Shown here: piece after piece, positions 4,615 to 40,818 of the stretch
Layout of the letters: each line of letters starts with the position of its first letter
Numbering within the stretch: the stretch's first letter is position 1
From: a virus
Lineage: Duplodnaviria; Caudoviricetes
Length of the DNA: 64,000 nucleotides
IMG/VR virus record: IMGVR_UViG_3300049142_000092
Location: 5,185-69,184 of that record
Direction: 5' to 3' (one strand)
The notes under the pieces: generated by a model
What the model was told of the DNA's origin: nothing
Seen by the model: the letters and a program-made list of their open reading frames with translations, nothing else
The model's database searches: none
Position numbers and translations under genes: made by a program

Positions 4615-4988
4615 CACGCACCACCCTGGGCGGGGCGGCGGCACTCGGGTCCATGCTCGCCCGTGTCCTCCAGCGTGTAGAACGGGCAGCCACATGCCGC
4701 CGCTGGCTCGTGTTCGACACAGTGCGAACAAGGAGGCGCGCAGAAGCACGTGCAGCCTTCACAGTCGATCGGACACCGGGAGTGCGCACGGCCGTCCTCG
4801 AACATCGCCACGTCATTGCGCGGGTTCGGCTTCACATAGCCGCGCAGCCGGCGGATCTCCTCGCACGGGGCGACGTGTAGCCACTCGACGACTGCGATCC
4901 GAGCAGCAGCTTCGTCGGCGTTCTGGTCGGACAGGAACGTCTCGGCCTCGCGCACGAGGGCGGCAGCCATCTCGTCGAGCCGCGGCAT
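4614..4988 (-). CDS. Cys-rich hypothetical protein
   Basis: ORF track; CPIDCEGCTCFCAPPCSHC; overlapping start/stop with neighbours. Confidence 0.6.
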   Translation of the reverse strand: MPRLDEMAAALVREAETFLSDQNADEAAARIAVVEWLHVAPCEEIRRLRGYVKPNPRNDVAMFEDGRAHSRCPIDCEGCTCFCAPPCSHCVEHEPAAACGCPFYTLEDTGEHGPECRRPAQGGA

Positions 4989-5167
4989 CAGACCGTCCCC
5001 CGCTCGGTTTCCTTCGCCGCAATGTCGGCCGCGGACTGGGCGATCAACCGCTCGGGGTGGAGACCGACGGCGAGCTGCTTCTTCTCGGGGATGCAGGGCC
5101 AGCCCGGTTGGGCGCCGCAGCGGTCACAACCTCGGGAAACCATGGCGCGGAAGGTGAAGGCGTCCAT
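4988..5167 (-). CDS. 59-aa zinc-finger protein (below ORF-track cutoff)
   Basis: Translated by hand: MDAFTFRAMVSRGCDRCGAQPGWPCIPEKKQLAVGLHPERL...; ATGA overlaps at both ends. Confidence 0.6.
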   Translation of the reverse strand: MDAFTFRAMVSRGCDRCGAQPGWPCIPEKKQLAVGLHPERLIAQSAADIAAKETERGTV

Positions 5168-6030
5168 CAGGCCACCGCCGCCGGGTACTCCCGCACCTGC
5201 AGCTCAGCGGGCCAGGTGTCGATGTCGCCGCCCTTATGTGGGCCGTGCGCCGACCCGAGCTGCTTCACGAACGGCGCGATGGCTGCGGCCTGGCACTGGT
5301 CGACGAGCGACTGCGCCCAGTCGAGCTCCATGCGGCGCGCTCCAGGGCCGGACTCCCCACCGATGATCACCCAGTCCAGGTGCGGCAGCGGGCGTCCGCT
5401 GAGCCGCCGCCGGTTCGACGGGTTCGAAAGGTGCTCCCAGATGCTCACCGGCCCGAGCAGCGGCTCGCAGGACAGGAATCGCACCGCGGCCGGGGTGTCG
5501 AGGAGGGCGGGGATGCGGAGGTCGGCCCGCTTCTGGTCCTCGACGGACACGCCGAGCCAGACGTTCGGCAGCGGCCACCATCCTGGCGGGTCATCGAAGT
5601 CGGGGTCCGCGCGCTCGGCGGTCTGCTGAACCTGCCAGGCGAACGCGCCTGTGTTCAGCAGGCTCCGCATGCGGCCATGTCGCTTCGTGAGCACCTGGTA
5701 CGTGTGCTGTGGTGTGCGGGCCATCACGGCGAAGACCTGCGCGAGGAACGACTGCGGGATGTCGTCGTGGAACAGGTCGGACATGCTGTTGACGAACACC
5801 CGGCGGGGCTTCCGCCAGCGCAGCGGCTCGCTCAACGTCGCCGGGTGGATGCTCACCCCGAAGCCGGGGCCGCTCGTGCGGGGGTCGCCGTCGCGCTGGT
5901 ACTTCTCCGAGCCCATGCCCTTCAGCCGGCGGGCCATCGTCATGGCGTAGCAGTTGTCGCAGCCGGGGCTGACGCGGTCACATCCGGTGGTTGGATTCCA
6001 GACGGTGTCGGTCCACTCGATTGCTGTCAT
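5167..6030 (-). CDS. DUF5131 / phage Gp37-Gp68 family protein
   Basis: MTAIEWTDTVWNPTTGCDRVSPGCDNCYA...VFVNSMSDLFH...FLSCEPLLG...WVIIGGESG. Confidence 0.93.
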   Translation of the reverse strand: MTAIEWTDTVWNPTTGCDRVSPGCDNCYAMTMARRLKGMGSEKYQRDGDPRTSGPGFGVSIHPATLSEPLRWRKPRRVFVNSMSDLFHDDIPQSFLAQVFAVMARTPQHTYQVLTKRHGRMRSLLNTGAFAWQVQQTAERADPDFDDPPGWWPLPNVWLGVSVEDQKRADLRIPALLDTPAAVRFLSCEPLLGPVSIWEHLSNPSNRRRLSGRPLPHLDWVIIGGESGPGARRMELDWAQSLVDQCQAAAIAPFVKQLGSAHGPHKGGDIDTWPAELQVREYPAAVA

Positions 6031-12662: not shown

Positions 12663-13805
12663 ATGGGGCGACAGCCCCTCCCGATCGGCGCCCACGGCAA
12701 CATCAAAACCACCCCCGTCGGGCCGAAGCTGTGGCTCGCCAGGTGCCGCTACCGCGACCCCGACGGCGTCACCCGGCAGGTGAAACGCACCGGCCGCTCA
12801 AAGTCGGCGGCCGAGAACGAGCTCCGCAAAGCCCTCACCGAACGCAAACGCACCGCCGGCGCCACCATCACCGGCGACTCCCGCCTCGCCGACGCCGCCA
12901 CCAAGTGGTTCGTGCAGCGCCGCGCAGAGGTCGACGGCGGCGACCTCGCCCCCACCACCCTCGCCGTGTACGAGTCAGCGTGGACCCTGTACGTCGAGCC
13001 GGCACTCGGGCAGGTCCGGCTGCGTGAGTTCACCGTGGCCCTGTGCGAGGACTGGATCGTCAACCTGCGCCGCCGCAAAGGCCCCTCAGCCACCAAGTCG
13101 GCGCGGACCGTGCTGTCCGGGATCCTCGGCTACGCCGCCCGCCTCGGTGCCATCCACACCAACCCTGTGCGGGACCTCTCAAGGATCCCCGGCGGGAAAA
13201 AACAGCCCGTGCGGGCTCTCACCACAGAGGAGCGCCGGCAGTGGCTCGAGGCCATGGAAGCCGACGAGAAAGCCGCACGGTGGGACATCCCCGACCTCAC
13301 CCGGTTCATGCTCGCCACCGGCTGCCGCGTCGGCGAAGCCTTGGCCGTGTCATGGGATGAGGTCGACTTCGACCAGGCGACCGTCAACATCCGCTGGCGG
13401 CTCGTCCCCGTGAAGGGTGAAGGGATCCGGCGGGTGAAGGGCGCCAAGAGCGTCGCCGGGGAACGGGTGCTGCAGCTGCCCCGCTGGTGCGTCGACATGC
13501 TCATGCGCCGACGCATCGACCCCATGTCCGGGTACCCCGTGTTCCCCGACGGACTCGGCGGTTGGCGGTGGCCCACCAACGTGTTGAAGGTGCTGCGGCA
13601 GGCCCGCGACGACGCCGGCTTCGGATGGGTCACCTCGCACGTGTTCCGGAAGACGACCCTCACCGTGCTCGACGAGGCCGGGCTGACACCGCGGGTACTC
13701 GCCGACCAGGCAGGGCACTCGGATCCGTCGATGACGCAGCGGGTGTACATGGCGCGGAAGGTCGCGTCGGAGCAGGCGGCACAGGCGCTCGAGGATCTGC
13801 TGTAG
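12663..13805 (+). CDS. int: tyrosine integrase
   Basis: ATGCRVGEALA (Arg), KGAKS, TSHVFRKT (HxxR), AGHSDPSMTQRVY (His/Tyr). Confidence 0.97.
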   Translation: MGRQPLPIGAHGNIKTTPVGPKLWLARCRYRDPDGVTRQVKRTGRSKSAAENELRKALTERKRTAGATITGDSRLADAATKWFVQRRAEVDGGDLAPTTLAVYESAWTLYVEPALGQVRLREFTVALCEDWIVNLRRRKGPSATKSARTVLSGILGYAARLGAIHTNPVRDLSRIPGGKKQPVRALTTEERRQWLEAMEADEKAARWDIPDLTRFMLATGCRVGEALAVSWDEVDFDQATVNIRWRLVPVKGEGIRRVKGAKSVAGERVLQLPRWCVDMLMRRRIDPMSGYPVFPDGLGGWRWPTNVLKVLRQARDDAGFGWVTSHVFRKTTLTVLDEAGLTPRVLADQAGHSDPSMTQRVYMARKVASEQAAQALEDLL

Positions 13806-28375: not shown

Positions 28376-28723
28376 TCAGACGTTGACGCTCGGCGCTGGC
28401 ACCGGCGCAACAACGCGGTCGCGGACGACGTACCCGGCGATGATCCCGATCGGCACCATCAACGCGGCCTGCTGCTCGGCCGACCAGTCCAGGCCGAGGC
28501 CGACGAACAGGGCGATCACGGCCTGGGCCGCGCCGGTGAGGGCGGGCAGCAGGTTGTCGGCCTTGACCAGGAACGCGGTAACGGCACCGGCCACGGCGAC
28601 CGCGGCCGCGTTGAGCAGGGCCTGCATGGTCGGGTCGTCCACGAACCAGAACGCGGCCACGGCCTGCACGATCGGGGCCAGCAAGCTGATGTACAGCAGC
28701 GCGGGCTCTCTACGGATGGACAT
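28376..28723 (-). CDS. holin
   Basis: MSIRREPALL...; four TM-like segments; immediately downstream of the endolysin. Confidence 0.8.
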   Translation of the reverse strand: MSIRREPALLYISLLAPIVQAVAAFWFVDDPTMQALLNAAAVAVAGAVTAFLVKADNLLPALTGAAQAVIALFVGLGLDWSAEQQAALMVPIGIIAGYVVRDRVVAPVPAPSVNV

Positions 28724-28778
28724 GGTCTCCCCTTCGGGGTCGGCCGGGACGTCGTCCCGGAGGCTGTGGCGGCCCACG

Positions 28779-29564
28779 TCAGGACGTGGGCTTGCCCTCG
28801 AGCGCAGCGACGCGCCGGCCGAGGTCTTCGAGGGTGCGGATGATGGCCGCGAGCTGGCCCGAGTCCGTGGGCGGCTGCGGGGCCGGAACGGGCTCGGCGA
28901 GCTTGGCCAGGATCTGGTCGCGCGCGAAGCCCACATCGACCCGGCGCGCGACCGCGATCGCGGCCAGCTCGTCGGGGGTGAGCGCGTTCGGGGCGTTGAC
29001 CGGGTCGGGCACGCCGAGCGCGGTCATGATCTGGTCCCGGGCGAAGCCGAGGTCGCGACGGAGCAGGTCGAGCTGGGCTGGGGTCATCTCGTCCTCTACG
29101 GGGGCCGCCGCGCGGAGCGCGACAGCGGGCTGCAGCACGGACTGGATCTTCTGGACGGTCAGCGACGTGGCGGCGGCCCGGGTCAGCTCGAGGTGAATAT
29201 GATCAACATGTGCGTTCGTGCCCGTGTACACGCGCCAGCCCGCGTCCGGGTAGGCCCCGGACCAGATCCGGCCGTTCCAGATCAGGCACTGCACGCCGAG
29301 CTCGGCGGACTGCAGCCGGAGCTGTTCGGCGAGCAGGGTGCCGTACGGCGCGGCGTGTGGGTTGATGCCGAGGTCGCAGGCACGTCCCTCACCGTGCAGG
29401 GAGGTCGTGGTTCCGCCGCGCACCGACCGACAGTTGTAGATGCCCAGGTTCTTGCCGCCCTGGGACCCGAATTGGCCCAGGAAGTACGCCATGAGCGCCT
29501 TCGCGCCCGGGGTCGGCCCGTCGGTGCAGCGCTTCGCGGGCTCGTAGACCCGAGCGAGGCTCAT
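28779..29564 (-). CDS. endolysin (M15-like Zn peptidase domain)
   Basis: GIYNCR...SLHGEGRACD...HVDHIHLE; C-terminal duplicated (L/V)GFARDQI motif, possibly for cell-wall binding. Confidence 0.85.
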   Translation of the reverse strand: MSLARVYEPAKRCTDGPTPGAKALMAYFLGQFGSQGGKNLGIYNCRSVRGGTTTSLHGEGRACDLGINPHAAPYGTLLAEQLRLQSAELGVQCLIWNGRIWSGAYPDAGWRVYTGTNAHVDHIHLELTRAAATSLTVQKIQSVLQPAVALRAAAPVEDEMTPAQLDLLRRDLGFARDQIMTALGVPDPVNAPNALTPDELAAIAVARRVDVGFARDQILAKLAEPVPAPQPPTDSGQLAAIIRTLEDLGRRVAALEGKPTS

Positions 29565-30481: not shown

Positions 30482-30642
30482 CTACCGCCCCCTGACAGTG
30501 CGGGTGAGCCAGTCGCGTACGACCATCCAGACTGGGCGCGTGTAGCGCCGGCACCAGCAGATCGAGCACTCCGTGCCCGTCCGATGGTGAAGGTGGGAGT
30601 CGCGAGCATGACCGCAGGCCGAGCACTTCATGCGACCTCCAC

Positions 30643-31248
30643 TCAGGGCACGAGCCGTGCCCAGACGATCCAGTTGTCGATGTAGTGGCCACTGCCGCGG
30701 TCGAAGGCTCCGCCGCAGGTAATGAGCCGCAGCTCGGGTTCGACGGTCGCGGCGTAGACCCGGTCGGTGGGGAACGCGTCCTTGGCGTGCCGCTCGACCG
30801 CGTACACGGCGAACCGCAGCGTCACGCCGTCGTCTCGCTCGATCTGGACCTCATCCCCGGGCACGAGCTCGTGCAGCCGGGCGAACACTCCGGGCTGTCC
30901 TTTGCGGCCGTTGACGATCCCGTCCACGTGCCCGGCCACGACCGCGGGCCCGCGCTCTCCGGGCATGATCTCGTCCCCGTCGAACTCGGGGTCCAGACCG
31001 GCGTAGTACCCGGCCTGGCCGGGGTCGTCCACCGGCGGTACGGCCAGCTCCCCGGCCTCGGTCAGGCCGAGTTCGGTCAGCGTGGACATCACGCCGATCT
31101 TCGGGATCCGGATCGTCGCTGGTCGCACGGCCGGGGCAGGCGCGCTGCTGACGGTGATCCCAGTCGACCCGCTCGGGGCATCGGGCCCCGGGGTCGAACA
31201 TCCACCAATCAGCAGCGCGCCGAGGAGCAGGGTAACGAGCCGGATCAA
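30643..31248 (-). CDS. class F sortase (lipoprotein)
   Basis: Lipobox-like LLIGGC; IRIPKIGV...LAVP...AGHVD (His)...LRLITCGG (Cys)...HYIDNWIVWA. Confidence 0.92.
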   Translation of the reverse strand: MIRLVTLLLGALLIGGCSTPGPDAPSGSTGITVSSAPAPAVRPATIRIPKIGVMSTLTELGLTEAGELAVPPVDDPGQAGYYAGLDPEFDGDEIMPGERGPAVVAGHVDGIVNGRKGQPGVFARLHELVPGDEVQIERDDGVTLRFAVYAVERHAKDAFPTDRVYAATVEPELRLITCGGAFDRGSGHYIDNWIVWARLVP

Positions 31249-31823
31249 GCCGGTCCGCCGCCGGTGGCCACCCCGCCGCGCGGGACGACGACCTTCACAT
31301 CCGGCGGGTTCACGGTCGTGGGCGGGGACGGGATAGCCGTGGCCTTGTCGTCGTCATCATCGTCGTCGTCGTCCCCGTCATCATCCCCATCGTTATCGCC
31401 GTCGTCGCAGGCCTTGTCCTTGTCCTGGATCGCGACCTTGAGCAGGGTGCGCAGCTCGGCGAGCCGGTTCGAGTCGGTGTCCACAGCCTTCTGCGCGCGG
31501 TCCACCCGGTCCTTTGCCGCAGCCAGAGTGTCCTGCGCGGTCTTCAGCGCGGCCTTCAGGGCAGCGTCATCCGGGCTCGCCGCCAGGTCCGCCTTAGCCT
31601 TGTCGACCGCGACCTGGGCGGCGTTGCGGGCGACCTTGGCCGCGTCGAGCTCCTTCAGCTCGTCGACCCGCTCTTCGGCCGCCCGATTGTCGAACCGCGT
31701 CTGTGCGGTCACGACCAGGGCCTTGGCCTCGCTGCAGGTCAGCCTGTCCGCGGCAAGGGCGAACGGAGCGGTCACCAGGGACAGCGCCACCACGGCACTG
31801 GTGGCGATGAGGCTGTTCTTCAA
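31245..31823 (-). CDS. secreted coiled-coil protein, candidate sortase substrate
   Basis: Signal peptide MKNSLIATSAVVALSLVTAPFALA; Cys pair around an Ala/Lys coiled coil; poly-Asp tract; ends VPRGGVATGGGPA; stop overlaps the sortase start (TTGA). Confidence 0.85.
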   Translation of the reverse strand: MKNSLIATSAVVALSLVTAPFALAADRLTCSEAKALVVTAQTRFDNRAAEERVDELKELDAAKVARNAAQVAVDKAKADLAASPDDAALKAALKTAQDTLAAAKDRVDRAQKAVDTDSNRLAELRTLLKVAIQDKDKACDDGDNDGDDDGDDDDDDDDDKATAIPSPPTTVNPPDVKVVVPRGGVATGGGPA

Positions 31824-31863: not shown

Positions 31864-32268
31864 CTACGGCGTGCAGCGTTGCGTCGGCGCGGGTGCGGCG
31901 GACCGGGTCTGGTCGGCCTGGTCGAGACGTTCGAGGTAGCTCTGGATCGCGACCCGGCGGTCGATACCGCTCTCCTGGGAGAGCAACAGCTCACGCTGGG
32001 CCTGCCGGTCGGAACGCCCGGCCGCGACCGCGGCCTGCGACCACGTCATGAGGCCGTCGACCACGTTCTGGTAGCACTCGTTGATGTGGCGCTGCTGGGC
32101 GACGTTGGTCATCAGATACACCCAGAGCACGATCACGGCCACCGTGTGCGCACCGAGCGTGATCAGGGTGGCGATCCTGATCCCGTCCATCTGGAGCATC
32201 GGCGGGACCGGTTCGGGTGGGTCGCCGCGCGGAGTATCAACGGGGTCCGGGGTGGCCTTCTCGGTCAC
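31864..32268 (-). CDS. single-TM membrane protein
   Basis: [21 protein letters not shown]; helical C-terminal domain with two Cys. Confidence 0.75.
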
Positions 32269-33056
32269 GGTCCTGGCTCGCTCTCGACGTCGTCCGGGGG
32301 CTCGGTCGTCGGTTCGGATGCGGAATCGGACGAACAGGAGTACGTGGGCGAGGAGTCGCTTCCGCCCTCGCGGGTGCAGAGGTAGTCGACGCCCTGCAAT
32401 GTCATCCGGTAGGCCCCAGGAGGGGGGCCGGCCGAGCCGGGTTCGCCCTGCGATCCGGGCGGTCCGGGCTCACCTTGCGGCCCGGCTGGTCCGGCCGGGC
32501 CCTGAGGACCGGCCACCCCGGGTGCGCCGTCCCGGCCGTCGATCCCATTCCGGCCCGCCGGACCAGCGGGTCCGGACGGTCCGGACGGTCCTTGCGGGCC
32601 CGGCACCGTGGAGTCCGTCCCCGGTGGGCCCTGCAGCCCGGTCTCGCCTTGCGGTCCGGCCGCACCCGGCTCACCGGCCGGACCGGGCGGACCGGGCACA
32701 GGGTCGGCCCGGACCTGCTCCGCTTCCTGGCAGACCCCGACCTGCTGCAGTCGCTTGGCGGCTTCCCCACCGGCCGCGCACGCGGCCACCACGCGCTCGG
32801 CCAGACCCTGCGCCTGGTCCGCGGCCGCATCGCGCTGACTGGTGACCACAGGTAGCTGCTCGGCCTGATCCTGGACTTGGCCGACTCGGCTGGTGAGCAG
32901 TACGCCCGCTCCCACGGCGAGCGCGGCCAGGATCGCGACGACCGCGAGCACCCAGCGCGGGTGGCCGCGCTCGTCCTTGCGATGCAGGCCGGTGATCTCG
33001 ACCACGTCACGCGGGGGCATTCGCACCCGCCGACCGTGTCGGCGCGGGGCCGTCAT
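32265..33056 (-). CDS. membrane-anchored collagen-like protein
   Basis: [22 protein letters not shown], coiled coil, ~29 Gly-X-Y triplets with one interruption, C-terminal two-Cys domain. Confidence 0.9.
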
Positions 33057-33303
33057 CGTCCTCGTCCGCCTCCAGGATCTCCGGGCGCGGCGGAACAGGG
33101 TGTCGGGCTTGCACGAGTTCTTCCTCGAGCAGGTTGATGTGTGCGAGCGCGGCCAAGAACTTGCGCTGCGCCTCGCGCGCCAGCCGCCGGTAGAACCGGC
33201 CGTCCTCTGCGACGCGGCGCGACCGACCGGCCAGCACGGCTGCGACCGCGGCCAGCAAACCGGTCAGGCCGGTGAACGTCGCCGAGATGAGTTCGACGCT
33301 CAA
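33007..33303 (-). CDS. single-TM protein (lysis cassette)
   Basis: N-terminal TM followed by a coiled coil. Confidence 0.7.
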
Positions 33304-33344: not shown

Positions 33345-33608
33345 TCAGTCCTCCGATCTTCGCCGCAGGTGGGCGAGCGTGCCGCCGAGCGCGAGCAGCA
33401 GACCCACGGCGAGCAGGGGCATACGCCAGTTGCCCGCGTTGCCCCAGGAGTCGATCTGTCCGGCCACAACCACAAACCCGATCACGGCCAGGCCGAGGAA
33501 ACGGGCTCGCTGGTCGAGCTTCATGTGTTCGCGCCACATGCTGTAGACGCACGTGAACGCCAGTGGGAGGGCCAGGCCGACACAGACTGCACGCAGGAAG
33601 TCCGCCAT
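33345..33608 (-). CDS. small 3-TM membrane protein (holin-like)
   Basis: Three hydrophobic segments, basic C-terminus. Confidence 0.7.
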   Translation of the reverse strand: MADFLRAVCVGLALPLAFTCVYSMWREHMKLDQRARFLGLAVIGFVVVAGQIDSWGNAGNWRMPLLAVGLLLALGGTLAHLRRRSED

Positions 33609-33668
33609 CAGTCCTCCTCCGGCGGGCCCGCGCTCAGGGGCGGACCGCGATGGGCGTGCCTGCACGGC

Positions 33669-35528: not shown

Positions 35529-35678
35529 TCAGCCCTCCTGCTTCGATTCGTCACGCTGGGCCAGCAATGCCTCGACCACGGCCTCGTTGGCGGCGGCCCG
35601 CCACAGCGCTTCGCCGAGCGGCTCCCGGCAGAGGATCTGGACGACCCGCTCGGGCGGGACGGAGGGCAGGTCAGGCAT
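35529..35678 (-). CDS. 49-aa hypothetical tail-region protein (not in ORF track)
   Basis: Hand translation MPDLPSVPPERVVQILCREPLGEALWRAAANEAVVEALLAQRDESKQEG. Confidence 0.55.
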   Translation of the reverse strand: MPDLPSVPPERVVQILCREPLGEALWRAAANEAVVEALLAQRDESKQEG

Positions 35679-38600
35679 GGGGCCCCTTCTTCGGTGGGTC
35701 AGTCCAGCGCTTGGGGTCCTGCACGCCCTCGATCACAGGAGGTGGCTGCTCGCCACGCAGTTCCTGCACCAGGGCATACAGCTCGCGCACGGCATCGAGC
35801 GCCAAGGCCACGCGAGCATCCAGCGACACCGTGGGCTGGCCGTTGCGATTGGTACTCACCAGCTCGGGGGCCACGGCCGCGAGGTGCTCGGCGATCACGC
35901 CGTAGTGCCGCTGCGGCGGCTCTCTGCGGGCGACGTCCACGCGGACCTTCTCCATGCGCATCGAGCCGTCCGGCTGACGACGACGAAGCGGCACGGTGCG
36001 CGGTTCGATCGGGTCGAGGTCCCAGTCATAGAGGTAGCTGTAGTTGCGCACCCGAGCAACGACGTCCAGACTGCTCAACCCGCCGCCGAAGCTCAGCGGC
36101 TCGATCTCGCGCTTGGCCATCTCGGTGGACGCCTCCGGATTGAAACTCGCGGCGTAGACCGGGACGGTGGCGTTGCCGTTGCCGCGCGTGAACGTGATCC
36201 GGTTGTTCGACCAAGTGATGCCGGAGCCCTCCGGCGAGAAGCCGGGCGCCAGAATCGCCGGGTCGCCACCCCTGAAGCTGTTGCGCTGGTAGTGCAGGAC
36301 CGTGTCGTTTAGGTCCCCGGCGGCGTTCGCGATAACGAAGTGGAACCGGCTCGCAGTGCCGTCGTCCGGGGCCAGGTGCGACCAGATCCGGATACCGGTC
36401 ACCGGGGCGTTGAGCACCGCGTAGGTCAGGCCCACGTCCAGCTGCGAGCGGACCTGCGTGCTCGTCCCGTACCGGGCTCGCAGGCCGGTCGGATCGAAGT
36501 CGATCCGAGACCGGCGGCCGTTGGCGTCCGGCCGACTGATCGCCCGCCAGATACCGCCCTCGTTGGCCAGCTCGCCGTAGTCGACCCCGGTCGCCCCGTA
36601 GATCCGCATCGTCCCGTTGGACAGCAGCTCGAGGCGCTCGCCCTCCAGGTCGGTGAGGAAGTTCCCGGTCACGAGCATGGACGCGTCCGAGACCTGCCAA
36701 CGGCCAACCACGGTGTTGTTGCGGTAGAGCCGGATGCCCGCGTTGTCGAACTCGATCTTGTTGCCGTTGACCGTCGGCGTGGAGAACCGGCCACCCAGGA
36801 CGACCTGGGCATTCATCGTGCCGGCCGTGATCTTGCCGACGTTCACGTTGTCAATGTGCGCGTCGTTGACCGCGAGCTGGTCGATCTCCGCCGAGCCGAT
36901 GGCGGCCTGCCGGATCGTCTGCCGGTCGATCGTGCCCGGCCCGTACTCGATCGTGACCAACTTCTTCGGCAGCACACCGTCGGAGGTCTCGCTCGGGCCG
37001 GACGCGTTGCCCACCCGGTCGACGGCGACCAGGCGCGCGAAGTACGTGGTGCCGATCGTCAGGTCGGTCAGGTTCGTCGTGCCGGCGGCCATGAAGTTGG
37101 TCTTGTACGTGGTCGATAGCGACAGGTCGACCTTGCCATCCGGACCCACCGGCCGGTCCGGGATGAAGTCGATGCCCTCCGCGAGGTGCACCTCGACCAT
37201 GCCGCCGGACGCGAAGTCCGGCGCGGCGGCCAGCATGTCCTCGCCCGAGGCGCCCTTGCCGTCCCAGGTGACGTTGATCGTACGCAGGTAGGTCGAGACC
37301 GTCGGCCGGGACGGGATCGGCGGGGGCTGGTCGTCCGAGGCGGTGTCCACGGCCACGGTCACCGACCACGGTCCGACGTTGCCGGCCCGGTCGATCGCGC
37401 GCACCCGGACACCCAGGCTCCGGCCGCCCTCGATGTTGCCGAAGGTGAGTGAGGTCGAACGGGTGGGCGATCCCTCCGGCTCGACCCAGGTGGTGTCTTC
37501 GAGCAGACCCTGATCGATCTCCCACTGCTGGGACTCGGTCAGCGGCTGCTGGCCCAGGTAGGAGTAGTTGACCTGGTAGTGGTCGACATCGCCGGTGATC
37601 GGCCCGCTGCCCTGATGCGCGGCCGGGTAGTCACGCAGCCACGCCTCCGCGATGGCCGAGCGTTGCTCGGGGAAGTCCGGCAGGTTCTGGTCGGGGTGGG
37701 ACTGCTTGAACTCCGCCAGGAGAGCGTCGCCGTACGTGGTGACGATCAGCGGGCAGTTGTCCCAGGTCCAGGCGGGATCCCCTTCGTCGTTGACGTGCAT
37801 CGGCTGGCCCGACCGCAGCCGGTCGGCGACCAGGAGAGCGGCCTCCGCGCGGCCGGCCGCGGCCTCGTCCGGGTAGGCATCGGTGAGCACTGCCGCCCAG
37901 CCGGCCGACACCAGGGCCAGCGCAGGGATCTGATCCGGCACCCGGTAGGCGATCGTCGAGGCCAGCGTGAGTCCGGTCGGCGCGGCGGGCGGGATCCGGT
38001 CCTCGCCCGTCCCACCGGGTGTTGGAGTGGACGTGCCGACGACCGCGTCCCCGACCGAGATGGCGTTCAGACGCCGGTACAGCTCGACCACTCGGTTGGC
38101 GATCAGGTCGTTGAGCACGACCGTGCCGCGAGGCGGCTCGTTCTGCGTGAAGGTCAGGTTGATCTGCGCGATCCGCAGGCGCCTGCGCTTGTTGTTGACC
38201 CAGGTGTAGGCCCAGTCCCCGATGCCCCATCCCACGATCGGCAGCGGAACGCCGGTCGAGAACTCGACGTCGCCCACGAACTCGGCCACGCCGTTGCGGA
38301 CAGCCTCCAGCAAGGTCGCGGCGTAGGCCTGCACAGCGTCCTGCGTGGACAGTTGCCCTGCGTCGTCGGCGACCTCGGCTCGCCACCCCAGCTCGGCCTC
38401 GGCCGTGGCCGACTCCGCCCAGGCGTAGAAGCCTTCCGAGGCGGCCGCGAGCACAGCAGTGCCGGCGTCTTCGGCCGATTCCCGTCGGGCGTGCTTGGAC
38501 AGGTTGACCGCGTGCGCGAAGGTCAGCGGCACCAGGCCGGTCGTCCGGTCGGTGCCCATCGCCCCGGACGCGTACGCCCGCCACACCCGGCCGGCAGTCA

Positions 38601-40818
38601 GCTCGTACTCGAGCAACCCGAGCTCAACGAGCTTGTCGGCCACCTGCAGCAGGGACGTCTTCGGGGCGATGTTGAACGACGAGATGGTCTTCGCCCACGG
38701 GTTGCCGTTGCTGTCGTGCGTGGCCGTGAAGTCCCGAGTGACCAGCGGTAGGGCCCGCCGCGCCTGCGCCTGGTCCATGGCCACGGTCAGAATCAGGCCC
38801 GCGGTCGCGCCCACGAACCTCAGTTCGCCCTTCTCATTCTCCTCGGTGCGCTCCTGCGGGGCGACGATCGCCTTCTTCAGGAGCCACTCATGGAAGTGCC
38901 CGTCGAAGGTCCACGTGCCGCCCGGGATGAGGTCGTCGCCCGCCTTCTGGGTCAACCAGCCGCCGAGCGCGCCTTCCTGGGAGCCGCCGAGCCAGATCCG
39001 AACTTCGAGCGCGCGCAGCGGGTAGGCCGAGACGTTGTCGAACAGGGCCGAGAAGCCCGGCGCGCCGGCGGGGTAGTCGATGCTGATCGACCCGGGTGCG
39101 TTGCGCACCGGGGAGATGTCGAGCTTCGTCCACGCCGGCAGCGGGATGAGCTTTCCGGTCCGGTCCACCGCGTACACCGACGGAACGAGTACGCCACCCG
39201 GGGCGGTCGGCGGTGGCGTACCGGCCTTCACTAGCGGCGTCCCGAACGCGGCCGTCGAGGCGATGCCCACGGCGCGCACGTCCTGGGGCCCGTCGGCCAC
39301 CGAGAACAGCGGCAGGCCGAACGCCTGCTTGGACGTGATCTTGCCTGCCGCGCTGACGGTCTGCGATCCAGCGGGCGGGGGTCCGGTCCCGTCGCCCAGG
39401 GTGTATCCGAGCGTGAACGGCAGCACCGTGTCGGTCCCGAGCAAGGTGGCGTGCGAGCCGGGCGGCGGTGGGGACTCCGCGCCGGTGATTGTCGGCACGC
39501 CGAACTGCTGCCCGGACGGGATCCCGGACGTCGTCACGGTCTGCGTGCCCGGCGGCGGGGTGACCGGGGTCAGGGTGTAGACCCGGTACCACTCGACCTC
39601 CATCGTGGCCGGGGTCTGATTCGTGCCGTCGAAGTTGTCCAGCTGGATCGTGCCGAAGCCCTTCGGCATGTCCTGGATGTTGCGACGGCTCGAGCTCGAC
39701 CCGCCCGAGGTGGAGAACCACTCGACGCCGTCGATGAAGCCCTTGATGTGGTCCGGGGTCCACTCGATCGCGATGTTGTGGAACTGGCTCAGGTCCACGC
39801 CGGACTTGTTGAACTCGCGCTGTTGGGAGCCGTCGCCCGGGAAGTGCATGAACGCGGTCAGCGTCGTTCCACCCGGCCGACCGGGCTCGTAATAGTCGTA
39901 CTCGCCGTCTGCGGACATCGAGTTGCTGGTCGGCCAGATCAGCAGCACCGGCGAGTACTCGTTGCCGTTGGAGGTGCCGGTGTTGTACGCGCGCACGCGC
40001 ACTTCCCAGCGGCCGTACTGCTGGTTGAGCTTGTTGGCCATCCAGCCGGAGTCGCCGTTGGCCAGCCCGGTCATGATCAGGCGGCCGTCCTGCACGGTCT
40101 GGCGCTCGGGTCGCCTGCGCCCGTTCCCGGCGTGCCCGGCCCAGTCCGTGCCCGGCAACGACCACTTAGCGGGGTTCGGCGGGCCGGGCTCGTCGAACTC
40201 GTCGCTGTAGGCGGCGATCGGCAGGCCCCAGCCGTTCCGGCCCGCGGCCGTAGTCATGTCCGTGGGCGGCGGGTCGGTGGGGCCTCCGCCGCCCGGGGTG
40301 CTGCCGACCAACGCGCCGGTGCCGTCGGAGTCGTTCGGGTCGCCGTTGATACCGACGTCGCCGGCCTGCAGGAACGTCAGGCGCGGCCCGAGCCCGGTCT
40401 TGCGCCAGATCCCGGCCGAGTCCTGAGTGAACGCCCCGGCCGCCGGCGTGGCGAAGTAGGTGTTGTTCGTGATCGTGGTCGAGACCGGTGCGACCAGCTG
40501 GGTGACCGCCTGCCCGGTGGCCGCCCGGATGACCGCGTTCCCATCGATCGTGCAGCCGGACGGGGCCAGCGAGTAGTTGTCGCCGACCCGCACACCCTCG
40601 GGGCAGTCCACGATGACGTTGTTGCGGACCTGGGCGTTGACCACCCGCCAGTGCCCGGACAGGTTCGTGGACGAGCCCTCGGCGTCACCGGTGTCCAGGA
40701 GCATCGGCCCCTGGAACGAGCCACCGTAGATGCCGGCCACGTAGTTGAACGAGACCTCGTGGTCGCGGTCATAGAACCGGAACCCGCCGGAGCCGATGGT
40801 GGTGCCGAACGTGGCCAC
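35671..40818 (-). CDS. multidomain minor tail (hub/Tal-type) protein: PL6 C-terminal half + GH16 + hub + Fn3 + fibre + S74 chaperone
   Basis: aa ~3-165 GGFRFYDRDHEVSFNY; GH16 with EYDYYE (ExDxxE); siphovirus hub-like region; Fn3-like PPAAPTGL / PPIPSRPTV; C-terminal S74-like S...KREIEPL...HYGVIAE...PELV. Confidence 0.9.
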   Translation of the reverse strand: MATFGTTIGSGGFRFYDRDHEVSFNYVAGIYGGSFQGPMLLDTGDAEGSSTNLSGHWRVVNAQVRNNVIVDCPEGVRVGDNYSLAPSGCTIDGNAVIRAATGQAVTQLVAPVSTTITNNTYFATPAAGAFTQDSAGIWRKTGLGPRLTFLQAGDVGINGDPNDSDGTGALVGSTPGGGGPTDPPPTDMTTAAGRNGWGLPIAAYSDEFDEPGPPNPAKWSLPGTDWAGHAGNGRRRPERQTVQDGRLIMTGLANGDSGWMANKLNQQYGRWEVRVRAYNTGTSNGNEYSPVLLIWPTSNSMSADGEYDYYEPGRPGGTTLTAFMHFPGDGSQQREFNKSGVDLSQFHNIAIEWTPDHIKGFIDGVEWFSTSGGSSSSRRNIQDMPKGFGTIQLDNFDGTNQTPATMEVEWYRVYTLTPVTPPPGTQTVTTSGIPSGQQFGVPTITGAESPPPPGSHATLLGTDTVLPFTLGYTLGDGTGPPPAGSQTVSAAGKITSKQAFGLPLFSVADGPQDVRAVGIASTAAFGTPLVKAGTPPPTAPGGVLVPSVYAVDRTGKLIPLPAWTKLDISPVRNAPGSISIDYPAGAPGFSALFDNVSAYPLRALEVRIWLGGSQEGALGGWLTQKAGDDLIPGGTWTFDGHFHEWLLKKAIVAPQERTEENEKGELRFVGATAGLILTVAMDQAQARRALPLVTRDFTATHDSNGNPWAKTISSFNIAPKTSLLQVADKLVELGLLEYELTAGRVWRAYASGAMGTDRTTGLVPLTFAHAVNLSKHARRESAEDAGTAVLAAASEGFYAWAESATAEAELGWRAEVADDAGQLSTQDAVQAYAATLLEAVRNGVAEFVGDVEFSTGVPLPIVGWGIGDWAYTWVNNKRRRLRIAQINLTFTQNEPPRGTVVLNDLIANRVVELYRRLNAISVGDAVVGTSTPTPGGTGEDRIPPAAPTGLTLASTIAYRVPDQIPALALVSAGWAAVLTDAYPDEAAAGRAEAALLVADRLRSGQPMHVNDEGDPAWTWDNCPLIVTTYGDALLAEFKQSHPDQNLPDFPEQRSAIAEAWLRDYPAAHQGSGPITGDVDHYQVNYSYLGQQPLTESQQWEIDQGLLEDTTWVEPEGSPTRSTSLTFGNIEGGRSLGVRVRAIDRAGNVGPWSVTVAVDTASDDQPPPIPSRPTVSTYLRTINVTWDGKGASGEDMLAAAPDFASGGMVEVHLAEGIDFIPDRPVGPDGKVDLSLSTTYKTNFMAAGTTNLTDLTIGTTYFARLVAVDRVGNASGPSETSDGVLPKKLVTIEYGPGTIDRQTIRQAAIGSAEIDQLAVNDAHIDNVNVGKITAGTMNAQVVLGGRFSTPTVNGNKIEFDNAGIRLYRNNTVVGRWQVSDASMLVTGNFLTDLEGERLELLSNGTMRIYGATGVDYGELANEGGIWRAISRPDANGRRSRIDFDPTGLRARYGTSTQVRSQLDVGLTYAVLNAPVTGIRIWSHLAPDDGTASRFHFVIANAAGDLNDTVLHYQRNSFRGGDPAILAPGFSPEGSGITWSNNRITFTRGNGNATVPVYAASFNPEASTEMAKREIEPLSFGGGLSSLDVVARVRNYSYLYDWDLDPIEPRTVPLRRRQPDGSMRMEKVRVDVARREPPQRHYGVIAEHLAAVAPELVSTNRNGQPTVSLDARVALALDAVRELYALVQELRGEQPPPVIEGVQDPKRWTDPPKKGPHA

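Follow-up and report, generated by a model that had tools for sequence, protein, structure and literature searches.

What would a phage do with a sortase of its own? This question is raised by two overlapping genes at positions 30643 to 31823 (minus strand) of a 64-kb stretch of DNA, here called the window, which comprises bases 5185 to 69184 of the 69,184-bp IMG/VR virus record IMGVR_UViG_3300049142_000092 and in whose positions all unqualified coordinates below are given. According to our analysis, one gene encodes a class F-type sortase and the other a secreted protein that ends in a motif shared with the substrates of cellular class F sortases, the two reside in a phage genome, and the pair is conserved among phage contigs. 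We deem it probable that they constitute a self-contained cassette of sortase and cargo by which a temperate actinobacterial phage coats the surface of its host, with masking of that surface or exclusion of other phages as the most likely role; cleavage and acceptor, the time at which the genes are expressed, and their biological role are what we infer from these observations.

The sortase and its secreted partner

The sortase gene and the residues on which its function is predicted to depend are the following.

30643 to 31248, minus strand: class F-type sortase of 201 amino acids, predicted lipoprotein (Pfam, NCBIfam, AlphaFold2/Foldseek)
31198 to 31200, minus strand: lipobox cysteine Cys17 (LLIGG-C), invariant in 36 of 36 homologues
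30928 to 30930, minus strand: catalytic His107 (VVAGHVDG), invariant in 36 homologues
30715 to 30717, minus strand: catalytic Cys178 (LRLITCGG), invariant in 36 homologues

The encoded protein matches the Pfam family Sortase (PF04203) at 71.4 bits against a cut-off of 26.6, with profile positions 1 to 125 of 125 covered, and the NCBIfam model class_F_sortase (NF033748) at 166.9 bits, just over the curated cut-off of 166; the class E model reaches only 22.7 bits. The profile search that an initial annotation of the locus had proposed for its class F assignment thus speaks for that assignment. An AlphaFold2 model built on the 36 homologues has a predicted local distance difference test (pLDDT) value of 86.9, and its top Foldseek matches in the Protein Data Bank (PDB) are sortases E (9m4u), D (4d70), C, and A, with probability 1.0, E-values of about 1e-8, and target-normalized template modeling scores of 0.5 to 0.7. 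As modeled, the protein has the sortase fold, an eight-stranded beta-barrel. Sequence searches of the PDB with phmmer and with profiles gave nothing useful, and the alignments to PDB sortases end at the Cys and leave the catalytic Arg unplaced. The His and Cys motifs and the lipobox-like N-terminus described in the initial annotation are all present, and Cys17, His107, and Cys178 do not vary among the homologues. The lipobox is borne by the N-terminus MIRLVTLLLGALLIGGC, and the sortase is predicted to be a lipoprotein.

The gene directly upstream encodes the candidate substrate, whose features are arranged as follows.

31245 to 31823, minus strand: partner gene, encoding a secreted acidic protein of 192 amino acids with an isoelectric point (pI) of about 4.5, candidate sortase substrate (from the open reading frame [ORF], its start, and homologues)
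31752 to 31823, minus strand: Sec-type signal peptide, residues 1 to 24, with an A-L-A cleavage site (...APFALA|A), read from the sequence
31401 to 31736, minus strand: antiparallel two-helix hairpin, residues 30 to 141, with Cys30 and Cys139 at its open end (AlphaFold2)
31284 to 31400, minus strand: disordered acidic stalk, poly-Asp and Pro/Thr-rich, residues 142 to 180 (pLDDT below 50 from residue 145)
31248 to 31283, minus strand: C-terminal sorting motif P-R-G-G-V-A-T-G-G-G-P-A-stop, lacking both a membrane helix and a basic tail, invariant in 12 of 12 aligned partners
31245 to 31248, minus strand: TTGA overlap of the partner stop (TGA) and the TTG start of the sortase, consistent with translational coupling, read from the sequence

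The partner has a TTG start behind the Shine-Dalgarno-like AAGGGGAG. A signal peptide, a Cys-bracketed coiled coil, a poly-Asp tract, and a Gly-rich C-terminus had been noticed in it, as had the coupling of its stop to the sortase start through TTGA, and all of these are found, the bracketed part being modeled by AlphaFold2 as a helical hairpin (helices H30-82 and H87-141, core pLDDT above 90). In the signal peptide, A19, P20, A22, and A24 are invariant in partner alignment A1; C30 is also invariant and C139 nearly so, and the two probably form a disulfide that staples the hairpin. No Pfam family and no PHROG family matches the partner. Foldseek returned for its model only generic helical hairpins (BAR domains, colicin R-domains), with E-values of at least 0.038, and the matches to the NCBIfam TraP and PgrA "surface exclusion" models lie far below cut-off and were dismissed as coiled-coil noise.

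The C-terminus reads VVVPRGGVATGGGPA, the candidate recognition peptide being ...VVPRGGVATGGGPA, and the protein ends two residues after GGG. Within the 69-kb genome, the partner alone bears the motif. Its 11 homologues always share contigs with sortase homologues and, when a differently built protein of 239 amino acids from a 66-kb contig is added, have little in common beyond the signal peptide and the tail P-x-G-G-V-x-T-G-G-G-P-A-stop. The stalk region is replaced in homologues by Excalibur-like Ca-binding segments. A set of 22 distinct partners all have a signal peptide, are all acidic (pI 4.0 to 4.8), and hold one to four Cys each, and their bodies are of at least three types: a stapled hairpin with poly-Asp, a hairpin with an Excalibur-like Ca-binding segment, and a different N-domain with an Excalibur-like segment. 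Variants of the tail in relatives are GGVDTGGG, GGVNTGGG, and GGVETGGG.

Linkage, cellular counterparts, and spread of the pair

The tail was searched as a degenerate DNA pattern in IMG/VR, in the JGI metagenomes, and in 185,579 species-representative cellular genomes, and was found on 9 contigs of 7 to 77 kb, on 16 contigs, and in two matches, respectively, the two cellular ones both being due to chance. The sortase gene directly follows the tail on 8 of the 9 viral contigs and on 13 of the 16 metagenome contigs; two of the other three end too soon and one is a chance match, which makes 13 of 13 among the evaluable ones. In all, the exact tail is counted on 9 viral and 14 further metagenome contigs. 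Partner and sortase genes in the related loci mostly overlap as GTGA or TTGA or are separated by a gap of at most 2 nucleotides. Chance is far from accounting for the pairing. When the sortase or the partner was scanned as a single protein against IMG/VR, there was no match, whereas the DNA pattern of the tail gave matches. As for the two cellular matches, the motif is not followed by a stop in the first, while the second (L012, a Fermentibacterales metagenome-assembled genome [MAG], 630 to 662) is the end GGVDTGGGPA-stop of what its visible C-terminal sequence suggests to be an undecaprenyl-diphosphate synthase, so that the 10-residue tail is not diagnostic unless a signal peptide and a neighboring sortase accompany it.

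The same kind of motif is found next to cellular class F sortases. We compared 11 cellular loci, 10 of them on plasmid or chromid records of actinobacteria and the other on a Kutzneria MAG, and in 9 of them the protein encoded immediately upstream of the sortase ends in P-x-G-G-[VIA]-x-[TA]-G (for example PSGGADTG, PNGGVETGGG, PHGGIHTGGGG, and PHGGVHTGIGG), after which come a hydrophobic helix and an RRR(R) tail. This cellular ending is modeled by NF058571, "GVDTG sorting domain" (NCBIfam release 20), which scores 34.4 bits on the Cryobacterium neighbor against a cut-off of 29 and stays below threshold on other cellular neighbors, such as that of A. agilis (27.1 bits). The phage partner is not matched by NF058571 even at an E-value of up to 10 and lacks the membrane segment and basic tail of that domain; phage partners in general stop 2 to 9 residues past the motif, with neither helix nor basic tail. 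Since the same motif stands upstream of cellular class F sortases, the phage partner can be regarded as carrying the cognate signal in a stripped form. The stripped form is not confined to phages, given that the Kutzneria MAG contig (L014, 7466 to 8573) encodes, among housekeeping genes, a chromosomal class F sortase with an anchor-less partner (...PRGPAQTGGGGTAS-stop; ...VPRGPAQTGGGGTAS-stop), the single such case among the cellular loci that we read.

A FastTree phylogeny of 31 sortase domains places the phage-context sequences in one clade (n = 17, support 0.91), separate from the Streptomyces, Micrococcales, and other cellular copies; the sister group of the main phage clade is formed by the Kutzneria sortase and the one from viral locus L005. 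Identity to the window enzyme is 50 to 86% within the phage clade and about 52% for the closest named cellular copy. The synteny survey suggested in the initial annotation thus finds the pair conserved in a clade of phage contigs, and the homologues are not limited to host chromosomes. Taken together, the family scores, the match to the cellular motif, and the conservation in the phage clade bear out the core of that annotation, namely a phage class F sortase with a cognate secreted substrate.

The spread of the pair among phages is uneven. No sortase-bearing IMG/VR contig is among the 80 closest portal relatives, which indicates that the cassette occurs in mosaic backgrounds, in phages whose portals are unrelated. 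Two proviruses with 65%-identical portals carry a sortase (36% identity; 155.8 bits with NF033748, below the cut-off) that is coupled by 4 nucleotides to an Excalibur-domain protein ending in VPSGAAETGQM-stop; by exact look-up they are Pseudonocardia autotrophica, BBG01541 and BBG01542. Judged by its sequence, this prophage pair is a more distant version of the same design, with a GH16-like gene after the sortase and no collagen-like gene beside the pair. A related provirus that is 98% complete has no sortase, tblastn of the sortase against 50,697 GenBank phages gave no match, PHROGs holds no family for the sortase or the partner, and the viral structures of BFVD contain no sortase fold at an E-value of up to 1e-3. 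The absence from the 98%-complete relative and from the GenBank phages suggests that the cassette is accessory, long-lived in phages and exchanged among them.

These data also bear on whether the pair could be host DNA that is passively carried and does nothing for the phage. Pairs of a class F sortase and its substrate are frequent in the genomes and plasmids of actinobacteria, and the cassette is not universal among related phages, both of which would fit such an origin. However, the phage sortases form their own clade, at most about 52% identical to the closest named cellular copy, the catalytic residues and the tail are invariant, the G+C content of the pair, overall and at third codon positions, is that of the neighboring genes and so matches the phage, and the exact tail is absent from the 185,579 cellular genomes apart from the chance matches. 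We accordingly find passive carriage very improbable.

Phage setting and possible roles of the pair

The source record, a single contig of linear class, is 89% complete by the CheckV estimate; a soil metagenome, probably its source, is the only sequencing run that holds the stretch, and one further run is listed with a small share, whereas no RNA run is among those listed. On the minus strand, the genes for terminase, portal, major capsid protein, tape measure, and large tail proteins lead to a collagen-like gene and then to the pair, which is followed by four small ORFs and by the endolysin and holin genes, with short intergenic gaps. Virion, lysis, and integration genes are therefore gathered on one virus-sized record, as in a tailed temperate phage, the temperate lifestyle being deduced from the tyrosine integrase. 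The context features are as follows.

12663 to 13805, plus strand: tyrosine integrase (PF00589, 59.8 to 61.3 bits)
28376 to 28936, minus strand: holin (phrog_9752, E = 1.1e-14)
28779 to 29564, minus strand: endolysin, outside the pair, with an LAS/M15-like N-terminal half and tandem GFARDQI repeats (phrog_32486, weak Extensin-like_C match)
32265 to 33056, minus strand: collagen-like protein with an N-terminal membrane helix (Pfam Collagen, E = 1.3e-13), syntenic with the pair in many loci

The initial annotation placed the pair within the lysis cassette, between the collagen-like gene and the endolysin gene. The order holds, but the pair adjoins the lysis genes rather than lying among them, with the four small ORFs before the endolysin gene and a membrane-protein ORF of 134 amino acids between the pair and the collagen-like gene. 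The location makes it possible that the pair assists lysis, although the position is not universal: as a late product made in bulk, the partner would cap lipid II or cross-bridge amines or otherwise perturb the wall, reduce cross-linking, and so aid endolysin and holin. The pair is co-oriented with late genes and lies about 1.1 kb upstream of the lysis genes with no terminator between, and the order of pair, small ORFs, endolysin, and holin recurs in L013, L008, L030, and L009; a 6-kb contig binned with a Thermobifida alba MAG holds partner, sortase, small ORFs, CHAP endolysin, and holin. Two long contigs show tail genes, then partner, then sortase. On the other hand, the pair is the last of its operon on the 69.7-kb P0011 contig, where opposite-strand genes come next, the P. 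autotrophica prophage has its GH16-like gene in that place, related phages lyse without the pair, and the mechanism lacks precedent, which together make an accessory role in lysis quite unlikely.

We favor, instead, a role at the surface of the host, in which both proteins would be exported and the sortase, as a lipoprotein, would remain attached through Cys17 to the outside of the membrane. Signal peptidase would release the partner as a soluble, very acidic protein, with the disulfide-stapled helical hairpin set on the disordered poly-Asp stalk. The sortase would then recognize the tag P-x-G-G-V-x-T-G-G-G, a class F ("GVDTG"-type) sorting motif, and, by analogy with other sortases, Cys178 and His107 would cleave it after Thr187 through an acyl-enzyme. 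The protein would be passed to an amine of the envelope, most likely of a peptidoglycan precursor or cross-bridge, and the host surface would become covalently coated with a phage protein. The purpose would most likely be to hide or change the cell surface so that further phages are kept from adsorbing, either as superinfection exclusion in lysogens or as protection of the progeny from the debris of dead cells. We rank this purpose first in view of the temperate lifestyle of the phage, of a cargo that varies and is directed to the surface, and of a cassette that can be dispensed with. As the tag lacks the membrane helix and the basic tail, capture would have to rely on the co-translated, membrane-tethered enzyme. 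A role of the pair in the virion was rejected since both proteins bear export signals. Also rejected was a -1 frameshift at TTGA that would fuse the motif to the hydrophobic N-terminus of the sortase and so mimic a full signal, as there is no slippery site and 4-nucleotide overlaps are ordinary coupling.

The acceptor could, however, be something other than peptidoglycan, in which case the processed partner would either stay bound to the lipoprotein sortase as a long-lived thioester, and so be tethered to the membrane at a 1:1 ratio that translational coupling would permit, or be ligated to a phage envelope protein such as the collagen-like one upstream. The signal without membrane anchor and the 4-nucleotide overlap, which suggests 1:1 synthesis, would agree with this, as would the membrane-helix collagen-like protein and the small membrane proteins that come before the pair in many loci. 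In L001, L003, and L008, the protein encoded upstream of it is of collagen type, with G-X-Y repeats and an N-terminal membrane helix; L007 has a similar transmembrane protein there, and the P0011 contig a collagen gene. Yet L002, L009, and the P. autotrophica prophage have no collagen-like gene beside the pair, neither a pilin-like Lys motif nor an N-terminal Gly acceptor is evident, and cellular class F substrates show ordinary wall-sorting architecture, so that we consider a non-peptidoglycan acceptor unlikely. Independently of the acceptor, the collagen-like protein, the small membrane proteins, and the pair may belong to a larger envelope module rather than being parts of the virion.

A further question is whether the tail is cleaved at all. 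In a complex prediction of sortase residues 40 to 201 with partner residues 150 to 192, the interaction prediction score from aligned errors (ipSAE) is 0.42 against 0.02 for the best control, which the tool grades as "weak support"; the ipSAE mark is reached by 58 of 80 solved complexes and by 2 of 110 mismatched pairs, and just 7 of the 80 account for scores of 0.60 or less. At least 91% of contacts are shared between runs, and the pLDDT of the partner is at least 53. At that strength, the prediction counts in favor of the partner as substrate. The weak grade, the position of the tail at the very C-terminus, and the lack of a conserved Arg would be compatible with a non-covalent docking peptide or an inactive enzyme, the pair then forming a simple secreted complex. 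To this we give very little credence, for the nucleophile Cys and the His are invariant and the same motif occurs in cellular proteins with full sorting architecture.

Several observations weigh against the covalent coating of the host surface that we prefer. The margin over the NF033748 cut-off is 0.9 bits, and five related phage copies fall below it at 127 to 158 bits. No Arg that could complete the classical His-Cys-Arg triad is invariant in the 36-homologue alignment, where Asn192 on the last strand is invariant instead; its equivalent is kept ("DN", "SN", or "EN") in the cellular class F copies that we read and is Gln in the P. autotrophica copy. The exception to the linkage is the 7-kb contig L004 (IMGVR_UViG_3300037193_001278), in which a partner homologue (4854 to 5492, ...VPRGGVSTGGGPA-stop) is followed by an ORF of 310 amino acids and by no sortase. 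A scan for promoters and terminators found no site on the strand of the pair and one terminator-like hit on the opposite strand, which is little informative because the consensus used is not actinobacterial; nothing in it sets the pair apart, and expression in the lysogen is therefore not indicated. Cleavage or wall attachment is not known from experiment for any GVDTG-type signal. According to work on S. aureus protein A, classical substrates are anchored efficiently only if they have the hydrophobic helix and charged tail, and a large share of the partner, whose tag has neither, may simply be secreted. In Actinoplanes missouriensis, the quadruple srtF deletion had no phenotype, and the physiological role of class F is unknown (PMC13251363). 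The missing membrane anchor is in our opinion a real oddity, which coupled synthesis beside the tethered enzyme may offset.

A bolder version of the coating role would be that this phage lineage evolved a minimal, portable sortase system, in which a lipoprotein class F sortase, reading an anchor-free signal of about 12 residues, covalently couples interchangeable acidic, Ca-binding cargo to the host wall and so excludes other phages. We advance it tentatively and with some doubt. If true, it would represent the first phage-borne class F sortase system and the first natural demonstration of class F enzymes acting on GVxTG tags, and the sorting tag, natural and free of an anchor, might find use in protein ligation.

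Some neighboring genes merit a description of their own. The catalytic half of the endolysin (HGEGRACD...HVDHIH) is joined to tandem GF/WARDQI repeats, and the same repeats are joined to a CHAP domain in L013 (3034 to 3792), which indicates that catalytic domains are exchanged as modules on a common wall-binding part; relatives of the endolysin are found on two viral contigs, both of which also carry the sortase. In the collagen-like "tail fibre" gene product, a strong membrane helix comes after an N-terminus rich in Arg, that is, a type II membrane topology; a tail-fibre query gave no relatives. The collagen-like gene is flanked by small membrane-protein ORFs, all on the minus strand, at 33007 to 33303, 31864 to 32268, and 33345 to 33665. 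Directly after the sortase lies a previously unlisted ORF of 49 amino acids (30482 to 30631, minus strand) with a strong GGAGG Shine-Dalgarno sequence and a zinc-ribbon-like CxxC...CxxC arrangement; L008 has a similar small Cys-rich ORF behind the sortase, and L009 one in front of the partner. The tail protein of 1715 amino acids (35671 to 40818, minus strand) has a concanavalin/GH16-like segment (IEWTPDHIKGFIDGVEWF) resembling the secreted protein of 348 amino acids encoded right after the P. autotrophica prophage sortase (L135, oriented 1884 to 2930).

Comparison with known systems

Phage lipoproteins that block superinfection are known from T5 (Llp) and from Streptococcus thermophilus phage TP-J34 (Ltp). 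Like them, the products of the pair are phage-encoded, exported, predicted to be attached to the envelope, and proposed to alter the surface against incoming phage, but the analogy is functional only, since Llp and Ltp are unrelated in sequence and involve no transpeptidase, and exclusion by the present pair is a proposal.

The closest counterparts are the cellular class F sortases and GVDTG proteins on replicons of Arthrobacter, Cryobacterium, Streptomyces, Embleya, and Nonomuraea, which share with the phage pair the enzyme class, the substrate encoded directly upstream, and the motif P-x-G-G-[VIA]-x-[TA]-G-x-G-G. They differ from it in that the phage genes overlap by 4 nucleotides and sit in a late-gene array and the phage substrate is without the helix and the Arg-rich tail. 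The pairing principle and the motif class are hence already cataloged (NF058571), whereas a class F cassette borne by phages and a signal without an anchor are new; our literature search returned no account of the GVDTG sorting signal or of actinophage sortases. Class F sortases are widespread in actinobacteria, and the two-gene phage cassette, as the smallest natural enzyme-substrate unit of the class, lends itself to direct assay. The occurrence of a related cassette in the prophage of a cultured P. autotrophica makes experiments feasible. The anchor-less signal contradicts the textbook three-part sorting signal and might show how soluble substrates come to be captured by a sortase.

The roles of class F sortases are stated to be unknown in reviews and in a 2026 mBio paper. 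Cutibacterium (Propionibacterium) acnes SrtF is named, in the passages of PMC8225981 and PMC13251363 that refer to Di Girolamo et al. 2019, as the only biochemically studied member of the class, and is reported there to be a housekeeping sortase acting on LPXTG. The phage enzyme belongs to the same class but differs from SrtF in its pairing with a Gly-rich GVxTG tail and in being predicted to be a lipoprotein.

The initial annotation knew of no described phage sortase system, a statement overtaken by an October 2026 preprint that reports sortase B with full-signal substrates in 24 huge gut phages and says that sortases were undocumented in viruses before (bioRxiv 10.64898/2026.10.24.761521). 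Those modules likewise consist of a phage sortase with a putative substrate encoded immediately upstream, for which display on the host wall is proposed. Their enzymes are of class B and related to those of Bacillota, their genomes exceed 200 kb and come from animal guts, and their substrates have the motif, the hydrophobic segment, and the charged tail. The cassette described here, in contrast, is of class F, has a stripped signal, and belongs to temperate phages of about 50 to 77 kb that infect soil actinobacteria, and it extends phage sortases from class B in huge gut phages to temperate soil actinophages of ordinary size. The occurrence of both class B and class F sortases in phages suggests that covalent remodeling of the host wall is a recurrent phage strategy.

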